A DNA stretch of 64,000 nt from Patescibacteria group bacterium (GTDB taxonomy: Bacteria; Patescibacteriota; Patescibacteriia; 2-01-FULL-39-33). A program made the position numbers and the translations under genes. Below are positions 14,556 through 36,395 of this stretch, piece by piece; the stretch's first letter is position 1; each line of letters opens with the position of its first letter. The notes under the pieces were generated by a model. It saw nothing but the letters and a program-made list of their open reading frames with translations. It had not been told where the DNA came from and searched no databases. The DNA lies in contig JBAZKF010000001.1 in assembly GCA_041650895.1 (NCBI GenBank), positions 359,156 to 423,155 on the forward strand, in the 5' to 3' direction.

Positions 14556-14792
14556 AAATGACGAGCATAATACTGTCTGCCAATAAGCGAAAATTATCAG
14601 GAGGGGGACAATAATCGCTAGTTAACAGACAGGATTATAACCGTCATTTGCTGTTTTTAATCAAATTATAGCCGATTTGTTTTACGACCCCATCTTAACA
14701 AATAACCCCAAACCCGTCAAGGCCTCGGGGTAAAAAATTAATAAATCATTAAAATTAAGATTTTTTCTTGATTTTTATCTTCTTAGTCGGCC

Positions 14793-15899
14793 ATGATTAA
14801 CGCGCCTTATTTAATAGCCTTGTCACAAATAAGTTTCTTAGGTCCTTCGCGTCTCAGGCGGCTGATTGATTTTTTTTCTGACCCCAAAGACGCTTGGACC
14901 GCCAAACTGCCGGAATTTTTGGCTGCAGGATTCAGTGAAAAGGAAGCGACTGATATAATTATAAAACGCCAGGAAATCAATCCGGAAAATGAATTAAAAC
15001 GATTAGAACAAGCCGGCATTGGATTCATCACTTCTGACGAAGCCGCTTATTCAAAATTGTTGAAAGAAATCTATAACACTCCCCCGCTATTGTATTATCG
15101 TGGCAACATCAATTGCCTGAACATGCCTTGCCTGGGCGTCGTCGGCGCTAGAAAACATACGGCCTACGGCCAGCAAGCAACAGAAAAGATTGTCGCCGGC
15201 ATTGCTCAGGCCGGAATCACAGTAATCTCTGGCTTAGCTTTGGGCATTGACGCTTTAGCGCACAAGATAACTTTGGATCAGGGAGGATTGACGGCGGCCG
15301 TGCTGGGGTCAGACTTAAGCTGGGATAATATCGGGCCTAAGACTAATTTCCATTTAGCTGAAAAAATCTTGGAATCAGCCGGCTGTTTGGTTTCGGAGTT
15401 CCCCTTAGGCGTCAGTGCTAATCGAGCGACTTTCCCCCAACGCAACCGCCTTATCTCCGGCTTATCTTCCGGCGTATTAGTCATTGAAGCCGGCGAGAGC
15501 TCCGGTTCATTGATTACCGCCGATTACGCTTTAGAACAAAATCGCGACGTTTTCGCCGTACCCGGAAGCATCTTTAGCCCCTACTCCGCTGGCACCAATA
15601 ATCTGATAAAAAAGGGGGCTAAGCCAGTCACCGGATCGGATGAGATTATTGAAGAGTACGGCTGGCAAAAACTGCCAAAAATAACAGTAACTGCTACAGA
15701 AAACGAACCGACTGAAACAGAAAAAGAAATTTTGGGGTACCTCTCCGCTGAGCCTCTTCACCTTGACAAAATCGTTCAAGTATGCAATATTAGGATTAAT
15801 ACTCTTTCGTCTTTGTTTATGATAATGTCTATCAAGGGATTAGTAAAAGACATCGGCGGAGGAAATTATATTAGAATCTATAAAAACAAAGACTCATAA
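14793..15899 (+). CDS. dprA: DNA processing protein DprA (Smf)
   Basis: Contains the Rossmann-like core LGVVGARKHTAYGQ…VISGLALGIDALAH; lies upstream of topA as in many bacteria. Confidence 0.85.
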   Translation: MINAPYLIALSQISFLGPSRLRRLIDFFSDPKDAWTAKLPEFLAAGFSEKEATDIIIKRQEINPENELKRLEQAGIGFITSDEAAYSKLLKEIYNTPPLLYYRGNINCLNMPCLGVVGARKHTAYGQQATEKIVAGIAQAGITVISGLALGIDALAHKITLDQGGLTAAVLGSDLSWDNIGPKTNFHLAEKILESAGCLVSEFPLGVSANRATFPQRNRLISGLSSGVLVIEAGESSGSLITADYALEQNRDVFAVPGSIFSPYSAGTNNLIKKGAKPVTGSDEIIEEYGWQKLPKITVTATENEPTETEKEILGYLSAEPLHLDKIVQVCNIRINTLSSLFMIMSIKGLVKDIGGGNYIRIYKNKDS

Positions 15900-22773: not shown

Positions 22774-22845
<72 letters not shown>

Positions 22846-22934
22846 CTAACCAATCACTGATTAATAATTACTAATTACGAATATAATTATTTTAATTCGT
22901 AATTTGAAATCCGTAATTTGTAATTGACATTTGT

Positions 22935-23007
22935 TGCGGGGGGCGGATTCGAACCGCCGACCTCTTGGTTATGAGCCAAGCGAGCTGCCGGACTGCTCTA
23001 CCCCGCG
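22935..23007 (-). tRNA. tRNA with CAU anticodon and a C1·A72 mismatch (initiator-like tRNA-fMet)
   Basis: Reverse complement reads CGCGGGGTAGAGCAGTCCGGCAGCTCGCTTGGCTCATAACCAAGAGGTCGGCGGTTCGAATCCGCCCCCCGCA. The acceptor stem 5' C pairs against 3' A, as in bacterial initiator tRNA. Confidence 0.7.
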
Positions 23008-23052
23008 ATAATATTTTATTTTCCATCTCTCCCTAAATAGATGAGATTGATG

Positions 23053-23134
23053 TGCCCGAGGAGAGACTCGAACTCTCACATATTGCTATACACGATTTTG
23101 AGTCGTGCGCGTCTACCAGTTCCGCCACTCGGGC
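23053..23134 (-). tRNA. tRNA-Leu (CAA), type II with long variable arm
   Basis: Reverse complement reads GCCCGAGTGGCGGAACTGGTAGACGCGCACGACTCAAAATCGTGTATAGCAATATGTGAGAGTTCGAGTCTCTCCTCGGGCA. Confidence 0.8.
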
Positions 23135-26191: not shown

Positions 26192-26252
26192 AGAATCACG
26201 ACGAGAGAGGTTCTCTAAGGGTTTCGTCCCGACGAGAGCCTTTTTCATTTGT
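26192..26252 (+). ncRNA. Candidate small RNA (about 60 nt) driven by the orphan promoter, with nested stem-loops and a 3' T-run
   Basis: acgatagaatcacGACGAgagaggttctctaagggttTCGTCccgacgagagcctttttc: imperfect hairpins followed by TTTTT. Confidence 0.3.
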
Positions 26253-26781
26253 GTTTATTTTTATACTCCAACTTACCCTTCAAAGCATTTAAAAAAATCA
26301 AAATATTATTTGCCGAGGAACTTAAGCGATCCAAAAGACAAGAATAATTATTTTGATTCGGAATTAACACTCTCTTGAGTTTTGAGTTATTAATTAGATA
26401 TTCTACCAAACAATAAAAATCACCATCACCGGAAACAATAATGGCCTTATCATAATTAGAATATTCAATCATGGCGTGCAATACCAATTCGGCATCTACG
26501 TTACCCTTAACTGTGCCATCAGCTAATTCCAGTGTCGGTTTAAATACGCAAATATAGCCATACTCCTGTAATTTTGTATACATCGCTTGATTACCGGGTT
26601 TAAAGCCGATGAATAGGAAGGCCTTTTCAATGCCATATTTATCTTTAAGATAAATCCTGAATCTTCTATAATCAAGCTGCCAGCCGGAATAAATCTTCCG
26701 GTCTTTTTTATAAATGTCTTTTGACAAGCTTTGATATAAATTATTGCTGTCAATAAAAGCGTAGTTTTTTCCTTGTGGCAT
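26245..26781 (-). CDS. NYN-domain (LabA/DUF88, PIN-like) putative RNase, immediately downstream of the DGR RT on the same strand
   Basis: NYN hallmarks YAFIDSNNLY…, KAIIVSGDGDF; 178 aa. Confidence 0.65.
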   Translation of the reverse strand: MPQGKNYAFIDSNNLYQSLSKDIYKKDRKIYSGWQLDYRRFRIYLKDKYGIEKAFLFIGFKPGNQAMYTKLQEYGYICVFKPTLELADGTVKGNVDAELVLHAMIEYSNYDKAIIVSGDGDFYCLVEYLINNSKLKRVLIPNQNNYSCLLDRLSSSANNILIFLNALKGKLEYKNKHK

Positions 26782-26801
26782 ATTATTTTATATAGATAAT
26801 C

Positions 26802-27788
26802 TTAGCAAGTATAAGCCAAATTAGCAATTTTTCGTTGTAATTTATAGCTCTGGCCGTGACTCAATAAACCCAAATATGAATTCATGGTTTCCGGGTTATG
26901 ATTTTTCCTCACTCGCCTGAACATCCTTCTTTTACTCGCCGTCCGAAACACCCGATGATCAAAAAAATTCACCCAACCCAGAAAGTCTAAGCCGGGACTT
27001 AAAGTTTTGATAAATAGCTTATCGGGATGAAGCGTCAGTTTCATTTTATCTCTCAAATAAGCATCAACCGATGGAATTATTTTTTCCAAATAATTTTTAT
27101 CATCAGCCATAATCACGAAGTCATCGGCATAGCGGATATAATATTTTACTTTCAGTTTATGCTTAACAAATTGATCAAATCTGTTCATATAAATATTAAC
27201 CAATAACTGCGAAGTTAAATTCCCCAACGGCAAACCTCCGTTAAAACTGTCAATCGCCTCGTCTAATAAACCCAAAATCTTTTTATCCGGAATATACTCG
27301 GCCAGGATATTTTCCAATATCCCATGATCGATATTGGCAAAAAATTTCCTGATGTCACCCTTTAAAATCCAACAAGTGTGGGTGTTATTCTGGCTGGCTT
27401 TGTAAGCAAATTTCTTGAATCTGGCCAAGGCCTTATGCGTGCCCTTGCCCAGCCGGCAGGAATAAGAATCGACGATGAAAGTCCGGTCAAAAAACGGATA
27501 CAAAATCCGATAAATCGCATGATGAACCAACCTATCACTGACCGACGCCTTATGGATTTGCCGCGACTTGGGATCGCAGATCTTAAAGGCCTGGTAGCCG
27601 CCATGGCGATAAGCGCCGGTTGCCAAATCCCGATGCAATGCGATAAGATTATCCATAAGGCGCAATTGGAATTCCTGCACGTCTTTTCTATTCCTTTTGC
27701 CCCTGACAAACTCCTGCCAAGCCAACAATAAATTATCAAGACAGATAATCTCTTCAAAAGTATGGCTCAACTTGATTTTCCCGTTCAT
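26802..27788 (-). CDS. Diversity-generating retroelement (DGR) reverse transcriptase
   Basis: RT domains with a YADD catalytic box (YIRYADDFVIM) and motif 4 LPLGNLTSQLLVNIYM (the DGR-specific xGxxxSQ, not the QGxxSP of group II/retron RTs). 328 aa, no maturase or endonuclease domain. Adjacent TR/VR pairs are present. Confidence 0.9.
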   Translation of the reverse strand: MNGKIKLSHTFEEIICLDNLLLAWQEFVRGKRNRKDVQEFQLRLMDNLIALHRDLATGAYRHGGYQAFKICDPKSRQIHKASVSDRLVHHAIYRILYPFFDRTFIVDSYSCRLGKGTHKALARFKKFAYKASQNNTHTCWILKGDIRKFFANIDHGILENILAEYIPDKKILGLLDEAIDSFNGGLPLGNLTSQLLVNIYMNRFDQFVKHKLKVKYYIRYADDFVIMADDKNYLEKIIPSVDAYLRDKMKLTLHPDKLFIKTLSPGLDFLGWVNFFDHRVFRTASKRRMFRRVRKNHNPETMNSYLGLLSHGQSYKLQRKIANLAYTC

Positions 27789-27815
27789 AATGATTCCTTT
27801 AATTTACCCCCCCCC

Positions 27816-27825
27816 CAACGGAAAA
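27816..27825. repeat. C10 homopolymeric tract between the divergent RT and avd1 genes
   Basis: cccccccccc in an AT-rich intergenic/5' region; a candidate slipped-strand phase-variation site. Confidence 0.6.
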
Positions 27826-27834
27826 TTTATCCCG

Positions 27835-28140
27835 TTGATTCAAAAAACCAAAACGCTATACATAGTATGGCATGGTTACTACCAATCTCTACCCAAAACC
27901 CATAAATACTCATTGGGTCAAAAAATCGACATCTTCTTTATTGAGGCGATTGAAGCTATGGCTACCGCCAGTTTCCTGCCACCACAAGCCAAACCGCCTC
28001 ATATCTGCCTAGCAATTCAAAAAATTGATTTGATAAAAATCATGCTAATGATTCTATGGGAGATAAAGGCGATTGATAATAATAAGTATTTAAATCTATC
28101 GCAACCACTAGACGAAATCGGCCGGATGCTAGGCGGCTAG
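27835..28140 (+). CDS. Avd-like four-helix-bundle (23S rRNA IVS protein family) accessory protein, copy 1 (start uncertain; no in-frame ATG until 27958)
   Basis: The C-terminus …LWEIKAIDNNKYLNLSQPLDEIGRMLGG matches the Avd/four-helix-bundle family C-terminal helix (…EIGkmLggW). It is paralogous to copy 2 with synonymous third-position differences in this frame. It is on the strand opposite to the RT and TR. Confidence 0.45.
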   Translation: MIQKTKTLYIVWHGYYQSLPKTHKYSLGQKIDIFFIEAIEAMATASFLPPQAKPPHICLAIQKIDLIKIMLMILWEIKAIDNNKYLNLSQPLDEIGRMLGG

Positions 28141-28149
28141 TACAACAAA

Positions 28150-28185
28150 CTGACAAAACAAAACTCCCCGGATAAACTCAGGGAG
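28150..28185 (-). terminator. Hairpin CTCCC-N12-GGGGAG plus T-run immediately 3' of TR1 (minus sense): DGR RNA 3' structure or terminator
   Basis: Minus-sense sequence …cgcaac tctctttatttttCTCCCtgagtttatccGGGGAGttttgtttt. The same element follows TR2. Confidence 0.5.
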
Positions 28186-28199
28186 AAAAATAAAGAGAG

Positions 28200-28320
28200 T
28201 TGCGGAGCGCAGCCGGATTATCGACGTTGAAGTCGTTATCAAGCCAGTTGTAGTTCCAGTTCCATCTGTCGCCATTCCAGTACAGGTAACGCACATACAG
28301 GTTGTCGTCCGAGTTGCGAT
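28200..28320 (-). repeat. DGR template repeat TR1 (cognate to VR1 at 28702-28822)
   Basis: 121-nt match to VR1. All 20 mismatches fall on TR adenines in the minus sense (TR AAC, GAC, TAC, AAT or AGA codons against G, D, C, R or F codons in the VR). Minus-sense TR1 encodes …RNSDDNLYVRYLYWNGDRWNWNYNWLDNDFNVDNPAALRN. Confidence 0.9.
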
Positions 28321-28576
28321 TTTCGCAAAATTCCGCCTAAACCACCATCCGTTGATCCGCCGACTGGCGGAATCTCCAGATTGAATCTTATGCGTGAGCT
28401 AAACTCACATAGAACATTGCGCCAAGTATCTTTACTTTAATTAGGCATTAATATATTACGCTACTACTGACATTGATCAGTAATATTCTGAATAATACTA
28501 ACACCGGCTGAGGTAGCGGATAGCCGTAACCAACCGCGGATTTACCTGTGGCTATTTACATAATAGCAGAATAATT

Positions 28577-28619
28577 TGAAAAAATAAATCCTGCACAAGT
28601 CAGATGACCGATGCAGGAT
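28577..28619 (-). terminator. Intrinsic terminator of target gene 1 (hairpin atcctgca…tgcaggat plus T-run on the minus strand)
   Basis: An 8-bp perfect stem followed by TTATTTTTT in the minus sense. Confidence 0.6.
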
Positions 28620-28697
28620 ATTTTGTACAAAATTTAGGGCTAAGGACTAAAGTTTAAAATTTCAAGAACTGAAAATCAAAATTCTAAGTCCAAAGGA

Positions 28698-29255
28698 CTA
28701 CTTGCGGAGCGCAGCCGGATCACCGACGCCGAAGCCGCCATCAAGCCAGCCGTAGCCCCAGTCCCATCCGCCGCCACCCCAGCACAGGTAACGCACAAAC
28801 AGGCGGTCGTCCGAGTCGCGATAAATAGTCCCCCAAAAGAAAATACATTTGCCTTTCCATTCTTCCGGAATCAACTCGAGATGTGCGAGTAAATAGTCAA
28901 GAACATTAGCGTTCAAGACCAGCTTGCCGGCCAACAACTTACGCAAAGCGTGACCTTTGACGATGTTATTCTTCTGGTCATTGGCCAGATAAAGCTCAAT
29001 CAATGCCGGATTCCACTCCAGTTGACCGCCCTTCTGGTGTTCTTCAACTTTCCAGCCGGACGGAACGAAAGGATGAACGTCGCAGTCAATAATGTACTTG
29101 GTCACGATGATTTCCGCCAAGCCATGCAGCACTTTCTTGAATTCCGCCAAACTCTTAAACTGCTGGAGCTTCGTCATCTCCTCCGGCGTATAACCAGCAG
29201 CTTCAAAAGCATCCATTACCTTGTTGGCTTGGCCTACCGAGTAAAGCGTGGACAT
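28698..29255 (-). CDS. DGR target (variable) protein 1; C-terminal VR at 28702-28822
   Basis: Probable start MSTLYSVGQ… with RBS AGGAGA; the track ORF extends to 29285 via GTG. The C-terminus …FVRYLCWGGGGWDWGYGWLDGGFGVGDPAALRK differs from the TR1-encoded peptide only at Asn/adenine-containing codons. It is paralogous to target 2 (shared core …VLDYL…IPEEWK…FFWGTI…). Confidence 0.85.
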   Translation of the reverse strand: MSTLYSVGQANKVMDAFEAAGYTPEEMTKLQQFKSLAEFKKVLHGLAEIIVTKYIIDCDVHPFVPSGWKVEEHQKGGQLEWNPALIELYLANDQKNNIVKGHALRKLLAGKLVLNANVLDYLLAHLELIPEEWKGKCIFFWGTIYRDSDDRLFVRYLCWGGGGWDWGYGWLDGGFGVGDPAALRK

Positions 29256-29338
29256 AGTCCATCTCCTTTTTGCGGACACGTTCACTTTGGAACCCGTCCA
29301 GTTTGAGGTGCGAATTGGCCTTGCATACAGAGCAATTC

Positions 29339-29367
29339 CAATATATTAAGTATAGCACGTATTATAT
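29339..29367 (-). promoter_or_regulatory. Promoter of target gene 1: TTGACA-17-TATACT (minus strand), with a TTTATCCAC motif just upstream
   Basis: Reverse complement reads TTGACAaaatatataatacgtgcTATACT. Confidence 0.5.
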
Positions 29368-29455
29368 ATTTTGTCAATAGATTTATCCACTCTACCAACT
29401 AACTAATTATTTTTATCTAAATTTAAACAAAAAATCACCACTATCTATTGGGATA

Positions 29456-29701
29456 ATGGAAGCAATTGCCACGGCCAGTTTCCTGGACAAACTGAGTAAG
29501 TCGCCGTATGTGGAAACAGCGATCAGAAAAACTGATATTTTAAAAATATTATTATTACTTTTGTGGGAGACAAAATCATTAGATAATAATAAATATTTGG
29601 CCTTATCAATTAAGATTGATGAGGTGGGCAAAATGCTTGGCGGCTGGAAAGGACAATTACTAAGTAAAAACTCCCCCGACAATAAAGCGGGAGAGAAATG
29701 A
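29456..29701 (+). CDS. Avd-like four-helix-bundle accessory protein, copy 2 (81 aa)
   Basis: MEAIATASFL…LWETKSLDNNKYLALSIKIDEVGKMLGGW…; resembles the BPP-1 Avd C-terminus (…EVGRILGSW…). A 40-nt upstream element (aaatttaaacaaaaaatcacc…ttgggataATG) is shared with a truncated third copy at 31508-31556. Confidence 0.5.
   Translation: MEAIATASFLDKLSKSPYVETAIRKTDILKILLLLLWETKSLDNNKYLALSIKIDEVGKMLGGWKGQLLSKNSPDNKAGEK
29663..29695 (-). terminator. Hairpin CTCTCCCGC-N-GGGGGAG plus T-run immediately 3' of TR2 (minus sense), homologous to the element after TR1
   Basis: Minus-sense sequence …gcaactcacttcatttCTCTCCCgctttattgtcGGGGGAGttttta. Confidence 0.5.
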
Positions 29702-29707
29702 AGTGAG

Positions 29708-29829
29708 TTGCGAGAACCGCAGCCGGATTATCGACGTTGAAGTCGTTATCAAGCCAGTTATAGTTCTCATTCCACTGGCTGTCGTTCCAATACAAGTAAC
29801 GGACGTAGAGGTTGCCATCAGAGTTGCGG
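29708..29829 (-). repeat. DGR template repeat TR2 (cognate to VR2 at 30184-30305)
   Basis: 122 nt, with no indels against VR2. The minus-sense sequence encodes RNSDGNLYVRYLYWNDSQWNENYNWLDNDFNVDNPAAVLA against the VR2 peptide RRSDGRLYVRCLFWSGSQWRGCYSWLDSGFVGGSPAAVLA. Most mismatches fall at TR adenines, and four non-adenine mismatches cluster at the 3' end (IMH/IMH*-like). Confidence 0.85.
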
Positions 29830-30065
29830 TTGTATGTGGCGCGCCGCCGATATCACTGCCCGTCGAATACTCTCTGGGCTGGATCTTATTTGTGATCTTA
29901 AATCACTTAGCGCTCCGCACCAAGTATCTTCATTTTTGAAGTTTCTACAGGCGCCACACTGCCTGAAGCCTTGACCGCAGGCATTCTCGGCGACTGGACA
30001 CTGGATTCGGTGGCAAGCAGCCATAACCGCTTGCTGATATTCACCTAATACCTTTTTTATTTTAG

Positions 30066-30101
30066 CATAAAAAATAATCCCGAACCATTGCTGATTCGGG
30101 A
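30066..30101 (-). terminator. Intrinsic terminator of target gene 2 (ttcccgaa…ttcggga plus T-run)
   Basis: A 7-bp stem followed by TTATTTTTT in the minus sense. Confidence 0.6.
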
Positions 30102-30169
30102 ATATGTTCAAAAAAATTGCATTAAGGTCAAATTTCCCAAGGATCCATATAGATCCAGGAAATCAAGAC

Positions 30170-30847
30170 CTAAGCGCTGATACTTGCGAGAACCGCAGCG
30201 GGGCTGCCGCCGACGAAGCCGCTATCAAGCCAGCTATAGCACCCACGCCACTGGCTGCCGCTCCAAAACAAGCAACGGACGTAGAGGCGGCCATCAGAGC
30301 GGCGGAAAATTGTGCCCCAGAAAAAGATAAAGATAATATTTCCTTTTTCATTTTTTTCCTTCCACTCTTCGGGGATGTACTCCTGATTGGCCCTAAGAAA
30401 GTCCAGAACGCTTGCCGACAACACCGGCCGGCCGTCAAGTTCTTTACGTAGTTCATGGCCGACAATAAATCGACCGTTAACCTGGAGCGTTGAGCGATAC
30501 AAAACGACTTTCTGTCCGTCAATGTATAAACCGTCAAATCTCTTTTCAATTGAAATCTTGCCCTGGCGGGCATGTTTCTCAACTGTTGCGTCAGTAAATG
30601 GCGGTCGCGGATCATTGTCCGTATCAATTACCGCCCGAAGGATCGGCGTTGTCTGGCGCAGAAATTCCTCGCCGATTTCCTTGAGTTTCTCAACAAAAAA
30701 ACTCTTGCCCGGACCAGTCGCCCAATCAATCACTTCGGCGCCGACCTTGATTTTCTTCAGAGTTGCGGCTATCAGCGAGAATAGATTGGCGAGCGCCGCC
30801 ACAAACTGCCCGACTTCCTTCCAATTCAAACTCTTTTTCGTCGACAT
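30170..30847 (-). CDS. DGR target (variable) protein 2; C-terminal VR at 30184-30305
   Basis: 225 aa; paralogous to target 1, and its C-terminus matches the TR2 product apart from differences at Asn codons. Confidence 0.85.
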   Translation of the reverse strand: MSTKKSLNWKEVGQFVAALANLFSLIAATLKKIKVGAEVIDWATGPGKSFFVEKLKEIGEEFLRQTTPILRAVIDTDNDPRPPFTDATVEKHARQGKISIEKRFDGLYIDGQKVVLYRSTLQVNGRFIVGHELRKELDGRPVLSASVLDFLRANQEYIPEEWKEKNEKGNIIFIFFWGTIFRRSDGRLYVRCLFWSGSQWRGCYSWLDSGFVGGSPAAVLASISA

Positions 30848-30974
30848 CTTTCACGTCCTTTCTATCTCCCCCATTACTGGCTCCTGGCCAACTCCGGATT
30901 GATATATTGAACTTCATGCAACAATTGGCTCTGCCGGAATGACAGCTTGCCAATATACTATTTTGTATCATACA

Positions 30975-31003
30975 TCAATAATTTTGTCAAGGGGTTTATC
31001 CAC
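30975..31003 (-). promoter_or_regulatory. Promoter of target gene 2 (TTGACA -35 box; weaker -10), with a TTTATCCACTCC motif upstream as for target 1
   Basis: Reverse complement reads …gtggataaaccccTTGACAaaattattgatgtatgaTACAAA. Confidence 0.4.
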
Positions 31004-31098
31004 TCCACTGAACTTTTTATCCGTGATTCAATGATTAATAGCCTATAATTACCAAAAAACAATAAAAAAGCCATCCGTCAACGGGTGGCTAAAGAACC

Positions 31099-31431
31099 TT
31101 ATTTACTCTGCAGACATGGTAACGCCGAAAGCCATTTATCAAATTTCCTATAAATCCGCCCCAAAAACCTGTTCCATTTTTTCTCACCATAAAAATCTAT
31201 GTACCTTTGCCTAAATTCAAGAAAAGACACTCTGGGAGCTAACCGTGGAACTCCAATCATCGCCTTGATCCTATTGGGATATTCTTTGATAAATCTCCTG
31301 GGGAATCGTTGGTGAATAAAAGCAATCGTATACGGGTCATCATCATGATTGCCCAATAACGGAACCACGAGCCTTTCATAAAGATCTTGACCATGCAACC
31401 CAATAAATTCAGACTTACTCATTACGTCCAT
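31099..31431 (-). CDS. Hypothetical 110-aa protein with its own TTGACA-17-TATGCT promoter and GGAGG RBS
   Basis: Has an ORF, an RBS and a promoter at 31450-31480 (reverse complement). The ORF shows no similarity to the DGR targets. Confidence 0.45.
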   Translation of the reverse strand: MDVMSKSEFIGLHGQDLYERLVVPLLGNHDDDPYTIAFIHQRFPRRFIKEYPNRIKAMIGVPRLAPRVSFLEFRQRYIDFYGEKKWNRFLGRIYRKFDKWLSALPCLQSK

Positions 31432-31580
31432 GACGCCCTCCTTTGTTTTTATTGTTTCTTAGAAAGCATAGACGACTTTAGAAAAAATGTCAATAATTTT
31501 GTTACTATTCAAATTTAAACAAAAAATCACCGCTATCTTTTGGGATAATGATGATTTTTAGTCAATCTCTGATTTTATAA

Positions 31581-32981
31581 TTATTTTAATCTCTTTTTCA
31601 CCCATTCCTTCAATTCTTCCGTCTTAACCTTATCCTGCTTCATAGTGTCGCGATTGCGGACAGTCACCTCGCCTTTTTCCAAGGTGTCAAAATCAACGGT
31701 AACGCAAAACGGCGTACCCACCTCATCTTGCCGGCGATAGCGTTTGCCCACATTGCCGTTATCATCAAATTCACATTTAAATTCACTGCGCAGATCGTCA
31801 AATATCTCCCGCGCCTTAGCCACTAGTTCCGGCTTGTTTTTCAGTAACGGGAAAACCGCGACCTTAACCGGGGCGATTTTGACTGGGAACTTCAATACCA
31901 CTCGGGAATCGCCTTCGTCCAAGTCCTCTTCAGTATAAGCGGCTGACAAAGCCACCAGCACCGAACGATCCAAACCAAAAGTTGGCTCTAGGACATGAGG
32001 CAGATATTTTTTGCCGGCTTGCTGATCAAAATAACTCAAGTCCGTGCCGGAAAATTTCTGATGCTGACTCAAATCAAAATCCCCGCGATGCGCCAAGCCG
32101 AACAATTCGGCAAAACCAAAGGGAAAATTATACTCAATATCCACAGTCTTACGGGAATAATGCGACAATTTTTCTTTCGGATGCTCATAATGCTTCAAGT
32201 CTTCTTTTTTAGCTCCCAATTCCAGGGCAAATTCTTCTTGCGCCTTCAGCCAATCCTTAAACAACGATTTCCACTCGGCATCCGGTGAAATAAAATATTC
32301 TATCTCCATTTGCTCGAATTCACGCACGCGAAAAATAAAATTACGCGCCACGATCTCATTGCGAAACGCCTTGCCGATCTGCCCGATGCCAAACGGCACC
32401 TTCACCCGACAAGAATCAACCACATTCTTAAAATCGGAAAAGATCGCGCCGGCCGTTTCCGGTCGCAAGTAAACCGGCTCATCAATGCCATTCATTTCCG
32501 TCTTAAACATCATATTGAAAAACCGGGCCTCAGTCCAATTCTTCTTGCCACAATTAGGGCAACTAATCTTTTCTTGAATAACTTTACTCATTTCATCCAA
32601 TTTTCCCTCTAAGTCTTCCCCCAAGACCTCACTGATCAAATTATCAGCCCGATAACGCATTTTGCAATTCTTACAGTCAACCATCGCATCATTAAAACCG
32701 CTCAAATGACCGGAAGCCTCCCATAACTTAGGATGCAACATGATTGGGCCGTCAATTCCCACCATATCCTCACGCTCGGTAACGAACATCTTCCACCATA
32801 AGGCCTTAATGTTATTCTTGAGTTCTACGCCATACGGGCCATAGGAGTAAGCATTGGCAAAGCCACCATAAATCTCACAGGCCGGAAAAACAAAGCCTTT
32901 CCGCTTGCATAAAGCCACAATTTTCTCCATCTTGTCATTCTGTTGCTGTTTATTAGCCATAAAAATAAAGTTATTTAACAA
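31581..32981 (-). CDS. glyQS: Glycine--tRNA ligase (class II, dimeric GlyQS type)
   Basis: …GFVFPACEIYGGFANAYSYGPYGVELKNNIK… and class II motifs; 466 aa (the start may be a later Met). Confidence 0.85.
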   Translation of the reverse strand: MLNNFIFMANKQQQNDKMEKIVALCKRKGFVFPACEIYGGFANAYSYGPYGVELKNNIKALWWKMFVTEREDMVGIDGPIMLHPKLWEASGHLSGFNDAMVDCKNCKMRYRADNLISEVLGEDLEGKLDEMSKVIQEKISCPNCGKKNWTEARFFNMMFKTEMNGIDEPVYLRPETAGAIFSDFKNVVDSCRVKVPFGIGQIGKAFRNEIVARNFIFRVREFEQMEIEYFISPDAEWKSLFKDWLKAQEEFALELGAKKEDLKHYEHPKEKLSHYSRKTVDIEYNFPFGFAELFGLAHRGDFDLSQHQKFSGTDLSYFDQQAGKKYLPHVLEPTFGLDRSVLVALSAAYTEEDLDEGDSRVVLKFPVKIAPVKVAVFPLLKNKPELVAKAREIFDDLRSEFKCEFDDNGNVGKRYRRQDEVGTPFCVTVDFDTLEKGEVTVRNRDTMKQDKVKTEELKEWVKKRLK

Positions 32982-36007: not shown

Positions 36008-36395
36008 GGGGATGTTTTGCTTTGATAGAGATAATGTTTTCCTATTAGCAAACCGAGCATGGCGGCAAACTCGTTAATCCGTCGCCACAGGCAAAAATGC
36101 CAAAAACATCTTAGCTAAAGTCCAATCTGCTTTTAGCAGCCTGGCTTTGGCTCCTGTTCTCGCTTAATATCGAGAACCATCGCCGCGCCCATTCCCGGTA
36201 AGCGCTAAGCGGTGTTATATTATCGGGATCGCCACTGACGTCGCCAGAGCGCCCTTGGTCAAACTTTTCTGGATCGCTTAAGGATTTTTTGCCGCTTTTT
36301 CAGTCCTTAAGTCAGAATATAAAACGGCTAAGTTTGTATCACTTTAGGGGATAATTTATTTCTAGACAGGGGCTCATTACCCCTCATCTCCACAC
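36008..36395 (+). ncRNA. ssrA: Candidate tmRNA (ssrA) downstream of smpB
   Basis: The 5' GGGGATG pairs with the 3' CATCTCC, followed by a discriminator A (acceptor stem). An internal ORF …AKNILAKVQSAFSSLALAPVLA ends with TAA inside the loop of the hairpin gttctcg-cttaatat-cgagaac. A T-arm-like GGGG-ctcatta-CCCC lies just before the 3' end. The length, about 388 nt, is typical. The region is a 575-nt non-coding gap. Confidence 0.45.

Follow-up and report, generated by a model that had tools for sequence, protein, structure and literature searches.

A chromosomal DGR with two cognate target-template cassettes in a Patescibacteria clade

Genes at the locus

We describe here a locus within a 64,000-nucleotide stretch of Patescibacteria DNA, referred to below as the window. 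The locus lies between glyQS and an M16 peptidase gene, where an initial annotation had also placed it. It is a genuine chromosomal diversity-generating retroelement (DGR) of a Patescibacteria clade and carries two cognate cassettes, each pairing a template repeat (TR) with a variable repeat (VR); we hold the account of its workings and origin given below with a probability of roughly 80%. DGRs of this kind are already known as the standard in candidate-phyla-radiation (CPR) bacteria; the sole unusual trait of this one is a second target-plus-template cassette without its own reverse transcriptase (RT). The RT, NYN, and target genes lie on the minus strand of the window, and their coordinates are those given by the initial annotation.

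The RT gene (26802 to 27788, minus strand) encodes an intact, full-length protein of 328 amino acids (aa) that contains the LGNLTSQ and YADD motifs and matches Pfam RVT_1 with an E value of 1.1e-22. Among solved structures in the PDB, its top sequence match is 8ub7_A (141 bits), a 328-aa chain named "Reverse transcriptase" that we take to be the BPP-1 RT; group II intron RTs score approximately 72 bits. The LGNLTSQ motif is invariant across 25 relatives, and the protein is 57 to 83% identical to the RTs of 80 related loci, with at least 8,000 homologues in Patescibacteria. Together, these matches classify the enzyme as a DGR-type RT. The NYN/LabA-family gene located 20 nt downstream (26245 to 26781, minus strand; Pfam NYN, E value of 9e-13) had been counted as part of the DGR, but it is a neighbor rather than a component. 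Close homologues of its family number in the thousands in Patescibacteria, four of five sampled orthologues sit in unrelated neighborhoods without an RT or avd gene, and an NYN gene occurs near the RT in only 2 of 80 related RT loci.

Target gene 1 (tgt1; 28698 to 29255, minus strand) encodes 185 aa and carries VR1 at its 3' end, and target gene 2 (tgt2; 30170 to 30847, minus strand) encodes 225 aa and carries VR2 in the same position. More than 1,150 homologues of tgt1 exist; it has no Pfam domain, and its structure model (pLDDT of 94) gives weak matches to C-type-lectin-like folds. The tgt2 open reading frame (ORF) is intact, with an orthologue of 89% DNA identity at L087 (L numbers denote related loci and contigs). 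Both target proteins are singletons in their own 90% clusters. At 42% amino acid identity, the two are less alike than either is to targets in L079, L060, and L064.

Two avd sequences lie on the plus strand, antisense to the RT. The first, avd1 (27790 to 28140, with an alternative TTG start at 27835), matches NCBIfam DivGenRetAVD (E value of 9e-14, below the curated cutoff) and an HMM built from 72 clade homologues (E value of 7e-50). The second, the avd2 fragment (29456 to 29701), represents the C-terminal ∼60% of Avd with the tail kept and the N-terminal helix region missing; it covers positions 52 to 102 of 104 in the protein profile and 153 to 351 of 351 in the DNA profile, and it is nearer to the avd genes of other genomes (63 to 73%) than to avd1. 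The antisense orientation was initially considered unusual. It is, in fact, shared by all 76 Avd matches among the 80 related loci, each in the TR-RT gap, and corresponds to architecture B3, TR-(avd)-RT, which Wu et al. (2018, PMC5758913) defined and which accounts for 90% of CPR DGRs. A G10:C10 homopolymer separates the RT start from the avd body (27807 to 27816), and a pure G run of 7 to 13 nt is present there in 50 of 57 related loci.

The locus had been termed complete, a description that the avd sequences do not sustain. Avd2 lacks the N-terminal ∼45%, and avd1 stops at a TAG (28138 to 28140) in place of the TGG at which 58 of 58 homologues have a tryptophan followed by a basic tail of 4 to 25 aa. 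The Avd of L083 reads GGWYGKLIKQNSP, and conservation with L083 persists in the tail codons past the TAG, a sign that the change may be recent. Loss of the conserved tail, from an invariant tryptophan onward, may now impair Avd and, with it, the entire element; alternatively, the TAG may be a base-calling error.

TR/VR pairs and cis-acting elements

When tabulated by template base, mismatches were biased to adenines in both TR/VR pairs, all four members of which lie on the minus strand. TR1 (28200 to 28320) and VR1 (28702 to 28822) differ at 21 positions, every one at a TR adenine (21/33 A versus 0/88 non-A; Fisher P = 2e-15). TR2 (29708 to 29829) and VR2 (30184 to 30305) differ at 24 positions, 20 of them at adenines (20/32 A versus 4/90 non-A; P = 3.5e-11). 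Each VR fits its own TR only, agreeing at 88/88 and 86/90 non-adenine positions, respectively, versus 67 to 70 with the other TR. With the RT, this adenine specificity confirms the earlier identification of a DGR, and the comparison bears out the claim that one RT is accompanied by two cognate TR/VR pairs. A scan of the 64-kb window with A as a wildcard retrieved no further VRs.

The four non-adenine mismatches between TR2 and VR2 are clustered within 11 nt, and the 3' 42 nt of TR2 are identical to TR1. Outside this tract, TR2 equals VR2 at all non-adenine positions. Three independent VRs all agree with an older TR2 sequence (...AACGGCAACAACCCCGCTGCGG), and the 3' end of TR2 was overwritten by TR1 through gene conversion. 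The VRs of two tgt2 homologues, like VR2 itself, still fit the older TR2; VR2 has therefore not been rewritten from the altered template, and the clustered mismatches point to an absence of homing from the present TR2 over that stretch. A VR2 still homed by the present TR2 would show variants with the TR1-type GTCGATAATCCGG block.

Directly 5' of each TR lies a structured leader RNA on the minus strand (leader 1, 28314 to 28492; leader 2, 29825 to 29999). R1, a covariance model derived from 42 other genomes and no window sequence, matched the window exactly twice: 5' of TR2 (29825 to 29963, 114.6 bits, E value of 1.4e-21) and 5' of TR1 (28314 to 28470, 77.8 bits, E value of 4e-14). In addition, an upstream hairpin of leader 1 (28439 to 28492) gave a weak match to Rfam RT-7. 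In the leader fold, 27 of 30 pairs show compensatory changes, and many G-U pairs occur on the RT-sense strand. Terminator-like hairpins with T-runs follow on the minus strand, directly 3' of TR1 (28154 to 28185) and 3' of TR2 (29666 to 29695); such an element is found 3' of 52 of 57 TRs, both window TRs included, with 30 distinct stem sequences. The promoter region of tgt1 (29349 to 29395, minus strand) contains TTGACA-17-TATACT, with 11 of 12 consensus matches and GTGGATAAA upstream, and a second copy of this promoter-region repeat lies at 30981 to 31008. Three of these features extend across the clade: the leader RNA on the 5' side of the TR, which shows covariation; the terminator-like hairpin on the 3' side of the TR; and the poly-G tract, which is conserved.

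Activity and origin of the two cassettes

The locus follows architecture B3, namely, target(VR)-TR-(antisense avd)-RT. Each cassette begins with a promoter and a terminator enclosing a small target gene, the final ∼120 nt of which form the VR. A separate TR unit follows, in which the 121- to 122-nt TR stands between a ∼140- to 175-nt structured leader RNA and a terminator-like hairpin that ends in a U-run. According to the established DGR pathway, the TR RNA would be reverse transcribed by the RT with Avd, the template adenines would be miscopied, and the cDNA would replace the cognate VR, guided by a GC-rich identical 3' block (CCGGCTGCG...CGCAA). Because the TR RNA resembles a small RNA that is complete in itself and bounded by a terminator, a cassette would need the RT and Avd only in trans, and an RT-less second cassette would be possible. 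Cassette 1 (tgt1/TR1) is the RT's own cassette. Cassette 2 (tgt2/TR2) is a satellite with all cis elements, only the avd fragment, and no RT, and it would be served in trans.

Comparison with relatives bears on the history of diversification. At columns where TR1 equals the TR of L083, the VRs differ at 13 of 28 adenines versus 0 of 75 other sites (P = 3.5e-9), and where the two TRs differ, each VR follows its own TR. This coevolution of TR and VR shows that cassette 1 was rewritten after the lineage split from a relative. For cassette 2, differences between VR2 and the VRs of tgt2 homologues fall at TR2-adenine sites in 18 of 22 (L087) and 17 of 20 (L089) cases (P of about 1e-9); these differences may have arisen while cassette 2 was still served by an RT of its own. 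We rate at somewhat less than even odds the reading that cassette 2 is the dead remnant of another, formerly complete DGR: the RT and the 5' portion of avd would have been lost and diversification would have ceased, leaving only cassette 1 in a working element. The truncation of avd2, the clustered non-adenine mismatches, and the TR1-like end of TR2 alongside VRs of the older type are consistent with such a relic, as is the DGR-less relative L087, which retains tgt2 without any TR. On the other hand, leader 2 outscores leader 1 on the clade model, TR2 retains 32 adenines as well as AAC codons, neither its 3' hairpin nor the tgt2 ORF is disrupted, and outside the converted tract it agrees with VR2 at every non-adenine position. 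Moreover, a further TR/VR cassette without an RT lies close to a complete DGR in L039. We think it rather unlikely that the whole element is switched off or was recently inactivated. Although neither avd copy is full length, given the TAG in avd1 and the missing N terminus of avd2, VR1 still equals TR1 at every non-adenine position and the RT is intact. A single-base assembly error at the TAG is also possible; contig L081, from an independent JGI assembly, ends at 28422, before the TAG site.

A short repeat, "a," occurs twice at the locus. Copy 1 (31494 to 31550) lies directly past the glyQS stop and includes a terminator-like hairpin. Copy 2 (29404 to 29458) is 86% identical and contiguous with the avd2 fragment; the nhmmer avd envelope extends into it, to 29426. 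The two copies flank an extra 2.09 kb. Within this interval lies ORF110 (31099 to 31431, minus strand), a hypothetical gene with its own promoter (31465 to 31493) that is inserted in the window compared with L087 and L083, has no family match, and is absent from 86 related loci. Copy 1 had been interpreted as a vestigial third module. It is indeed a duplicate of the avd2 fragment's 5' edge and is weakly avd-like over 13 to 33 nt; however, it is an internal scrap of avd rather than a promoter and start, it gave no match to the clade avd profile (E value above 10; protein HMM E value of 0.22), and "a" also stands next to glyQS in single-cassette and DGR-less relatives (L083 and L087). At the same chromosomal site, L083 to L086 carry tgt1 only (glyQS-a-tgt1-TR1-[avd]-RT-NYN), and L087 carries tgt2 only (glyQS-a-tgt2-ORF184-M16).

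Because relatives hold either cassette alone at the glyQS-M16 site, the locus gives the appearance of two alleles that recombination has stacked, and such stacking of diverged alleles fits the sequences better than local duplication; the two cassettes are not recent copies of one another. Most likely, two alleles with different cassettes would have undergone unequal, microhomology-mediated recombination, with the crossover between avd2 and the short avd-like scar "a" downstream of glyQS, yielding the tandem pair; TR1 later overwrote the 3' end of TR2. This route is reconstructed from extant alleles. It must also accommodate the greater similarity of the "a" repeats (86%) than of the flanked cassettes (72% DNA identity over the TR-avd stretch), for which constraint or gene conversion has to be invoked.

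The initial annotation had instead suggested "cassette copying." The modules are homologous, as that proposal requires, and a local tandem duplication of one target-TR-avd unit followed by long divergence, with 31494 to 31550 as a third-copy remnant, would account for their collinearity, the repeat spacing of 1,498 to 1,510 nt, and the unbroken passage of the avd2 fragment into an "a" sequence that recurs, weakly avd-like, by glyQS. We nevertheless consider it improbable. The divergence of the targets and of the TR-avd stretch, together with the closer affinity of each target and of the avd2 fragment to foreign genes, already points to cassettes that are not sisters, and "a" precedes either cassette in relatives that have one alone, with no avd profile match in the supposed remnant. 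An assembly chimera of two strain alleles merits very little credence. Both single-cassette alleles do occur in related populations, DGR repeats are known to break assemblies, and contigs L081 and L082 end near repeats; yet L081 covers tgt2-TR2-avd2 fragment-"a"-tgt1 at 99.95% identity (window 30598 to 28422), reproducing the cassette 2/cassette 1 junction, and the Logan contig L082 has the avd2 fragment beside tgt1.

Comparison with known DGRs

The locus most resembles the CPR DGRs of architecture B3 (Wu et al. 2018, PMC5758913) and DGR clade 2 (Roux et al. 2021, PMC8144416), with which it shares the target(VR)-TR-(avd reverse)-RT order, a Patescibacteria host, and a small target without a recognizable domain. 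Unlike these, it contains an additional target-leader-TR cassette whose avd is reduced to a fragment; of the 57 related loci in which a TR could be detected, L039 alone also has a second one. With the prototype DGR of Bordetella phage BPP-1 (mtd-avd-TR-brt), it shares adenine-specific TR-to-VR differences, an AAC-rich TR, a VR at the 3' end of the target gene, and an Avd-type accessory protein. It differs in that avd is antisense and lies between the TR and RT and in that the structured RNA is 5' of the TR, with a terminator-like hairpin 3' of it, whereas the conserved RNA of BPP-1 (Rfam RT-10) occupies the interval from the TR to the RT, on the 3' side of the TR (Weinberg et al. 2017, PMC5737381).

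DGRs with more than one TR have been predicted previously (Yan et al. 2019, PMC6642488), for instance, in Stenotrophomonas sp. SKA14 (two TRs and six VRs); of the multi-VR DGRs in that survey, about 20% had at least two TRs. As in these systems, a single RT locus here has two TRs that differ from each other, and a separate VR is cognate to each. The window cassettes, however, are tandem and collinear, each has a full set of cis elements, and their origin appears traceable to alternative alleles of one chromosomal site. In multi-target, single-TR DGRs (Legionella, Treponema, and others), one RT likewise serves several target genes, but all VRs match a single TR, whereas each VR in the window matches only its own.

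Locus anatomy and DGR class

The locus lies between glyQS and an M16 peptidase gene, and all of its genes are on the window minus strand except two Avd genes on the opposite strand. Read 5' to 3' along the minus strand, glyQS (ending at 31581) is followed directly by a 57-nt element, here termed 'a' (31550-31494), by ORF110 with its own promoter (31431-31099), and then by two cassettes. Cassette 2 consists of the target gene tgt2 with its promoter (30847-30170), which carries VR2 (30305-30184) at its 3' end and has a terminator after it; a structured leader RNA (29825-29999, minus strand); and, immediately 3' of the leader, TR2 (29829-29708), followed by a hairpin and T-run (29666-29695). An Avd gene fragment, avd2 (29456-29701, plus strand, antisense to the RT), runs unbroken into a second copy of 'a' (29458-29404). 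Cassette 1 has the same parts: tgt1 with its promoter (29255-28698), VR1 (28822-28702) at its 3' end and a terminator after it, a leader RNA (28314-28492, minus strand) immediately 5' of TR1 (28320-28200), and a hairpin and T-run (28154-28185). The Avd gene avd1 (27790-28140, plus strand, antisense to the RT), the RT gene (27788-26802, minus strand), a NYN gene (26781-26245, minus strand), and the M16 peptidase gene (26103-24847, minus strand) complete the order. The anatomy given in the initial annotation is accurate. On either side of the region are ordinary RNA genes, one for tmRNA and three for tRNAs (36008-36395, plus strand; 22774-23134, minus strand). ORF110 encodes a 110-aa hypothetical protein; its promoter is near consensus, it also has a terminator, and a direct repeat of 13 nt, ACAAAATTATTGA, flanks it. 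Together with its promoter it forms a further insertion of ∼0.5 kb that is absent from two same-site relatives (L083 and L087); it had no family match and no homologue in any fetched locus.

The locus is a genuine DGR of a well-described kind, from a publicly available Patescibacteria MAG. Its RT matches Pfam RVT_1 and carries LGNLTSQ and YADD motifs; LGNLTSQ, which has the DGR motif 4 form [LIV]GxxxSQ, is invariant among 25 relatives. The best match among solved structures is a 328-aa reverse transcriptase (8ub7_A, 141 bits), which we take to be the Bordetella phage bRT, while group II intron RTs reach 72 bits. Identity as a group II intron or retron RT was considered and rejected: with the group II profile the RT reaches only 138 bits, where the cutoff is 300, it likewise falls far short of the retron cutoff, and a TR/VR adenine signature is present instead. 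An Rfam search of the region returned no intron or retron RNA family. Profile and PDB sequence matches alike favor the DGR clade over group II and retron RTs, as originally proposed.

The gene order is that of architecture B3, TR-(avd)-RT, in which avd occupies the TR-RT interval in reverse orientation and the target lies upstream on the RT strand. This antisense-avd layout has already been described for CPR DGRs (Wu et al. 2018, PMC5758913). For comparison, we used 80 related loci from one-genome-per-species contigs, all from Patescibacteria or unclassified MAGs, with RT identities of 57 to 83%. Wherever a TR was detectable (n = 55), the layout was VR, ∼450 to 500 nt, TR, ∼400 nt, and RT, and all 76 of the Avd matches found across the 80 loci were antisense to the RT and within the TR-RT gap. 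The antisense orientation of avd, which the initial annotation had called unusual, is therefore the norm of the clade, as these counts and the published architecture together indicate. The locus is an ordinary DGR, a member of the largest DGR clade known, with the layout that is standard there.

Adenine bias and the history of the templates

When mismatches were tabulated by template base, a clear adenine bias emerged in both TR/VR pairs, bearing out the initial annotation. Between TR1 and VR1, 21 of 33 template adenines are changed versus 0 of 88 other bases (Fisher p = 2e-15), with all 21 mismatches at A; between TR2 and VR2, the corresponding values are 20/32 and 4/90 (Fisher p = 3.5e-11), with 20 of 24 mismatches at A. 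Each VR fits only its own TR, and an adenine-wildcard scan found no further VR elsewhere in the 64-kb window. VR1 and VR2 end 4 and 14 nt, respectively, ahead of their target stop codons, and TR1 read in frame contains AAC and AAT codons, which place the TR adenines in codon positions 1 and 2. Candidates for the IMH and IMH* are the identical 3' blocks of 16 to 19 nt (TCCGGCTGCGCTCCGCAA in pair 1 and GCTGCGGTTCTCGCAA in pair 2), after which the repeats diverge. Substitution of A by G dominates, accounting for 19/21 changes in pair 1, 14/20 in pair 2, 15/18 in L083, and 10/18 in L088 (a complete tgt2-type DGR located elsewhere), or 58 of 77 adenine substitutions when the four pairs are pooled; both a bias of the RT and selection for Gly or Asp codons are conceivable. 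The variable protein may display the VR on a C-type-lectin or Ig-like fold; a Foldseek search of the PDB with a model of the target protein gave no significant match. Both target proteins are singletons in the 90% clusters of the protein collection, and an independent contig (L081) carries VR1 and VR2 identical to those of the window.

Comparison with relatives dates some of this rewriting. Over the columns in which TR1 and the TR of L083 carry the same base, their VRs disagree at 13 of 28 A sites but at 0 of 75 others (p = 3.5e-9), and at columns where the two TRs differ, each VR tracks its own TR. Since the VR differences are confined to A and the VRs follow their own templates, VR1 was rewritten after the two lineages split. 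For tgt2, comparison of VR2 with the VRs of two homologues in L087 and L089 places 18/22, 17/20, and 14/18 pairwise differences at TR2-adenine sites (p = 1e-9 to 1e-6), although these differences are possibly old. By this pattern, we consider tgt2 to have a history of DGR diversification.

All four non-adenine mismatches between TR2 and VR2 are packed into 11 nt close to the 3' end of the repeat, inside a 42-nt stretch in which the two templates are identical (28200-28241 in TR1 and 29708-29749 in TR2); the remainder of the two TRs is ∼75% identical. TR2 carries here the TR1-type block, GTCGATAATCCGG, and VR2 and the two tgt2-homologue VRs all fit an older TR2 template, ...AACGGCAACAACCCCGCTGCGG. 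Evidently, on this sequence comparison, the 3' end of TR2 was overwritten by TR1, that is, by gene conversion from template to template. Given that all nine adenines survive, plain gene conversion is a likelier route than cDNA homing. Judged by its fit to the older template, VR2 has not been rewritten from the altered TR2, and cassette 2 could be either competent but idle or dead.

RNA elements, Avd, and the NYN gene

In 55 related loci, the TR is directly preceded on its 5' side, in the TR/RT sense, by a structured RNA of ∼140 to 175 nt. Its predicted fold comprises an upstream hairpin plus a long-range helix of 12 bp, inside which lie two further hairpins, with compensatory changes in 27 of 30 predicted pairs; many G-U pairs fix the strand as the RT-sense one. 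A covariance model built from 42 other genomes gave exactly two significant matches in the 64-kb window, one 5' of TR2 (114.6 bits, E = 1e-21) and the other 5' of TR1 (77.8 bits, E = 4e-14), and the sole further match had an E value of 6.5. Across the DGR region of the window, leader included, no Rfam family reached its gathering score, and 16 related loci yielded at that score only tRNA, tmRNA, rRNA, and one LOOT RNA; there were just weak, partial matches to RT-7 (26.6 bits versus 116.8) and RT-9. The leader may be the element recognized by RT or Avd, located 5' of the TR and not 3' of it as in phage BPP-1.

On the other side of the TR, a GC-rich hairpin followed by a T-run occurs 15 to 20 nt downstream in 52 of 57 TRs, both of those in the window included, with 30 different stem sequences. 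This hairpin was assessed by folding each sequence individually, as RNAalifold applied to a MAFFT alignment gave no structure (stem lengths vary). Bounded by an apparent terminator and with conserved structure on its 5' side, the TR looks like a self-contained small-RNA gene. Because the TR RNA appears to be terminated ahead of avd and RT, the RT would need its own promoter.

A pure G run of 7 to 13 nt is found 15 to 30 nt upstream of the RT start in 50 of 57 loci (G10 at 27807-27816 in the window), in or beside the 5' end of avd, where it corresponds to a conserved 'PPP'. The purity of the tract, which lacks synonymous interruptions, points to selection at the nucleotide level. In one further contig (L101), the avd start codon is called downstream of the tract, which makes the tract probably intergenic; a test for in-frame starts across the poly-C tract was ambiguous. 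We saw no length polymorphism, with G8 in three assemblies with identical RTs and G10 in the window, L001, L083, and L084; this constancy among close relatives and identical-RT assemblies gives no sign of phase variation. The tract could be a promoter-spacer or untranslated-region element, or else a slippage switch.

avd1 matches Avd profiles, but a TAG (28138-28140) closes it at a position where Trp is otherwise invariant. There, 58 of 58 homologues, among them the avd2 fragment of the window and the 90%-identical Avd of L083, have Trp and then a conserved basic tail of 4 to 25 aa (W.GQL.KQNSP..). The tail codons of avd1 are still recognizable downstream of the TAG. The stop codon would reflect a recent mutation that inactivates or attenuates Avd, or else an error in base calling. 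avd2 is a fragment that lacks roughly the N-terminal 45%.

The NYN gene is a neighbor of the DGR and not a component of it. Its family is very large and highly conserved, with thousands of patescibacterial homologues at 60 to 96% identity. Four of five sampled orthologues lack a nearby RT and adjoin SecA, UvrC/RecR, Cas12a, or response regulators, the syntenic lineage copy alone having an RT neighbor, and a NYN homologue lies near the RT in only 2 of the 80 related RT loci. This inconsistent co-occurrence with DGR RTs speaks against its earlier inclusion in the DGR; in this lineage the gene, 20 nt from the RT, is probably cotranscribed with it. A literature search on DGRs with NYN genes, multiple TRs, or homopolymers returned nothing pertinent among the papers covered.

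Origin of the two cassettes

A second TR beside a single RT is rare: besides the window, it was seen among the related loci only in L039, where the second TR is also without an RT or avd of its own. The L039 case, from a Yanofskybacteria genome, is an RT-less satellite VR-leader-TR cassette (14688-15282, minus strand) whose leader matches the clade covariance model at 38.6 bits; it lies 5.7 kb from a complete DGR, on the other strand, and the 17-kb locus contains neither an RT nor an avd belonging to it. Multi-TR loci are not unprecedented, since more than one TR has been predicted in ∼20% of multi-VR DGRs (Yan et al. 2019, PMC6642488). What is uncommon here is a second cassette that is RT-less yet complete in cis, together with stacking that can be traced.

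The initial annotation attributed the two modules to duplication, or copying, of a cassette. They are indeed collinear, but a recent copy does not fit. tgt1 and tgt2 share 42% amino acid identity over the C-terminal 150 residues, and the TR-avd stretches share 72% DNA identity; tgt1 is nearer to the targets of three related loci (L079, L060, and L064; 48 to 54%) than to tgt2, and the avd2 fragment is 63 to 73% identical to avd of other genomes, with avd1 not among its best 12 matches. On these identities, we regard the cassettes in the window as old.

Alleles at the same site offer another origin. Four contigs from different samples (L083 to L086), found with a 79%-identical tgt1 homologue as the query, have the order glyQS-'a'-promoter-tgt1-leader-TR1-(avd)-RT-NYN, that is, cassette 1 alone. 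L087, found by a tgt2 search of metagenome contigs and syntenic with the window over 10 kb, has glyQS-'a'-promoter-tgt2 (89% DNA identity)-unrelated ORF-M16, without TR, avd, RT, or NYN. At this site, a sister genome (L001) carries a cassette of a third type, whose target is 631 aa long. The extra 2.09 kb of the window (31550-29459) is bounded by the two 'a' repeats, which are 86% identical to each other. From this synteny, the window looks like two alleles stacked at one site. The simplest route would be an unequal, microhomology-mediated crossover in which avd2, from a DGR allele of the tgt2 type, recombined with the avd-like scar 'a' that lies upstream of tgt1 in an allele of the tgt1 type.

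The nature of 'a' bears on this route. The stretch at 31494-31550 had been described as a vestigial third module, surviving as an avd promoter and start. It does repeat the 5' edge of the avd2 fragment, but it is neither promoter nor start, being an internal scrap of avd with a 2-nt deletion. Because the same sequence follows glyQS in single-cassette and DGR-less relatives, it is an old scar common to the lineage. That 'a' is simply glyQS flank unrelated to avd was also entertained; this is weakened by the weak avd similarity of the second copy, in which 13 nt can be aligned with the avd DNA profile of the clade, the envelope extending to 33 nt.

Further alleles were noted in passing. One relative (L087, 5998-7580; L089, 5743-6483) has tgt2 at the glyQS-M16 site, without DGR machinery, and a second tgt2 paralogue 7 kb away, and the VRs of these paralogues differ from one another mainly at template-adenine sites; the tgt2 copies are either fossils of a DGR or remote targets of one that lies elsewhere in the genome. 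The allele in L093 (4116-4763) reads glyQS-683-aa protein-215-aa weak RVT_1 gene-NYN-M16, and its apparently truncated RT suggests decay of the DGR at this site in some strains.

The appearance of the TR as a self-contained, terminated small-RNA gene makes use of RT-Avd in trans by the second cassette plausible. We tentatively combine these elements in a joint reading, to which we assign a probability of roughly 30%: the CPR TR would be a free-standing small-RNA gene; target and TR would form a portable cassette on which any resident RT-Avd could act in trans; the glyQS-M16 site would be an expandable array in which units are stacked or removed by recombination at an avd-derived scar; and templates would exchange sequence, an example being the replacement of the TR2 end by TR1 sequence. 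Should the single RT still be rewriting cassette 2, the locus would be a natural two-template DGR and would give direct evidence that CPR DGR RNA is recognized through the 5' leader and not the 3' spacer.

As a natural test of cassette turnover and of DGR machinery acting in trans, the locus is moderately interesting. It sets one RT beside two different, fully equipped templates, with relatives that hold either cassette or no DGR at the same site, and it raises the questions of whether CPR RT-Avd acts on a template in trans, how DGR cassettes are gained, lost, and recombined, and whether templates convert one another. The clade-wide leader RNA, 3' hairpin, and poly-G tract may matter more to specialists than the locus itself, and these three features suggest that the CPR DGR RNA layout differs from the Bordetella phage model. 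In that model, a conserved RNA (Rfam RT-10) lies 3' of the TR, between TR and RT (PMC5737381), whereas in the loci described here the conserved RNA lies 5' of the TR.
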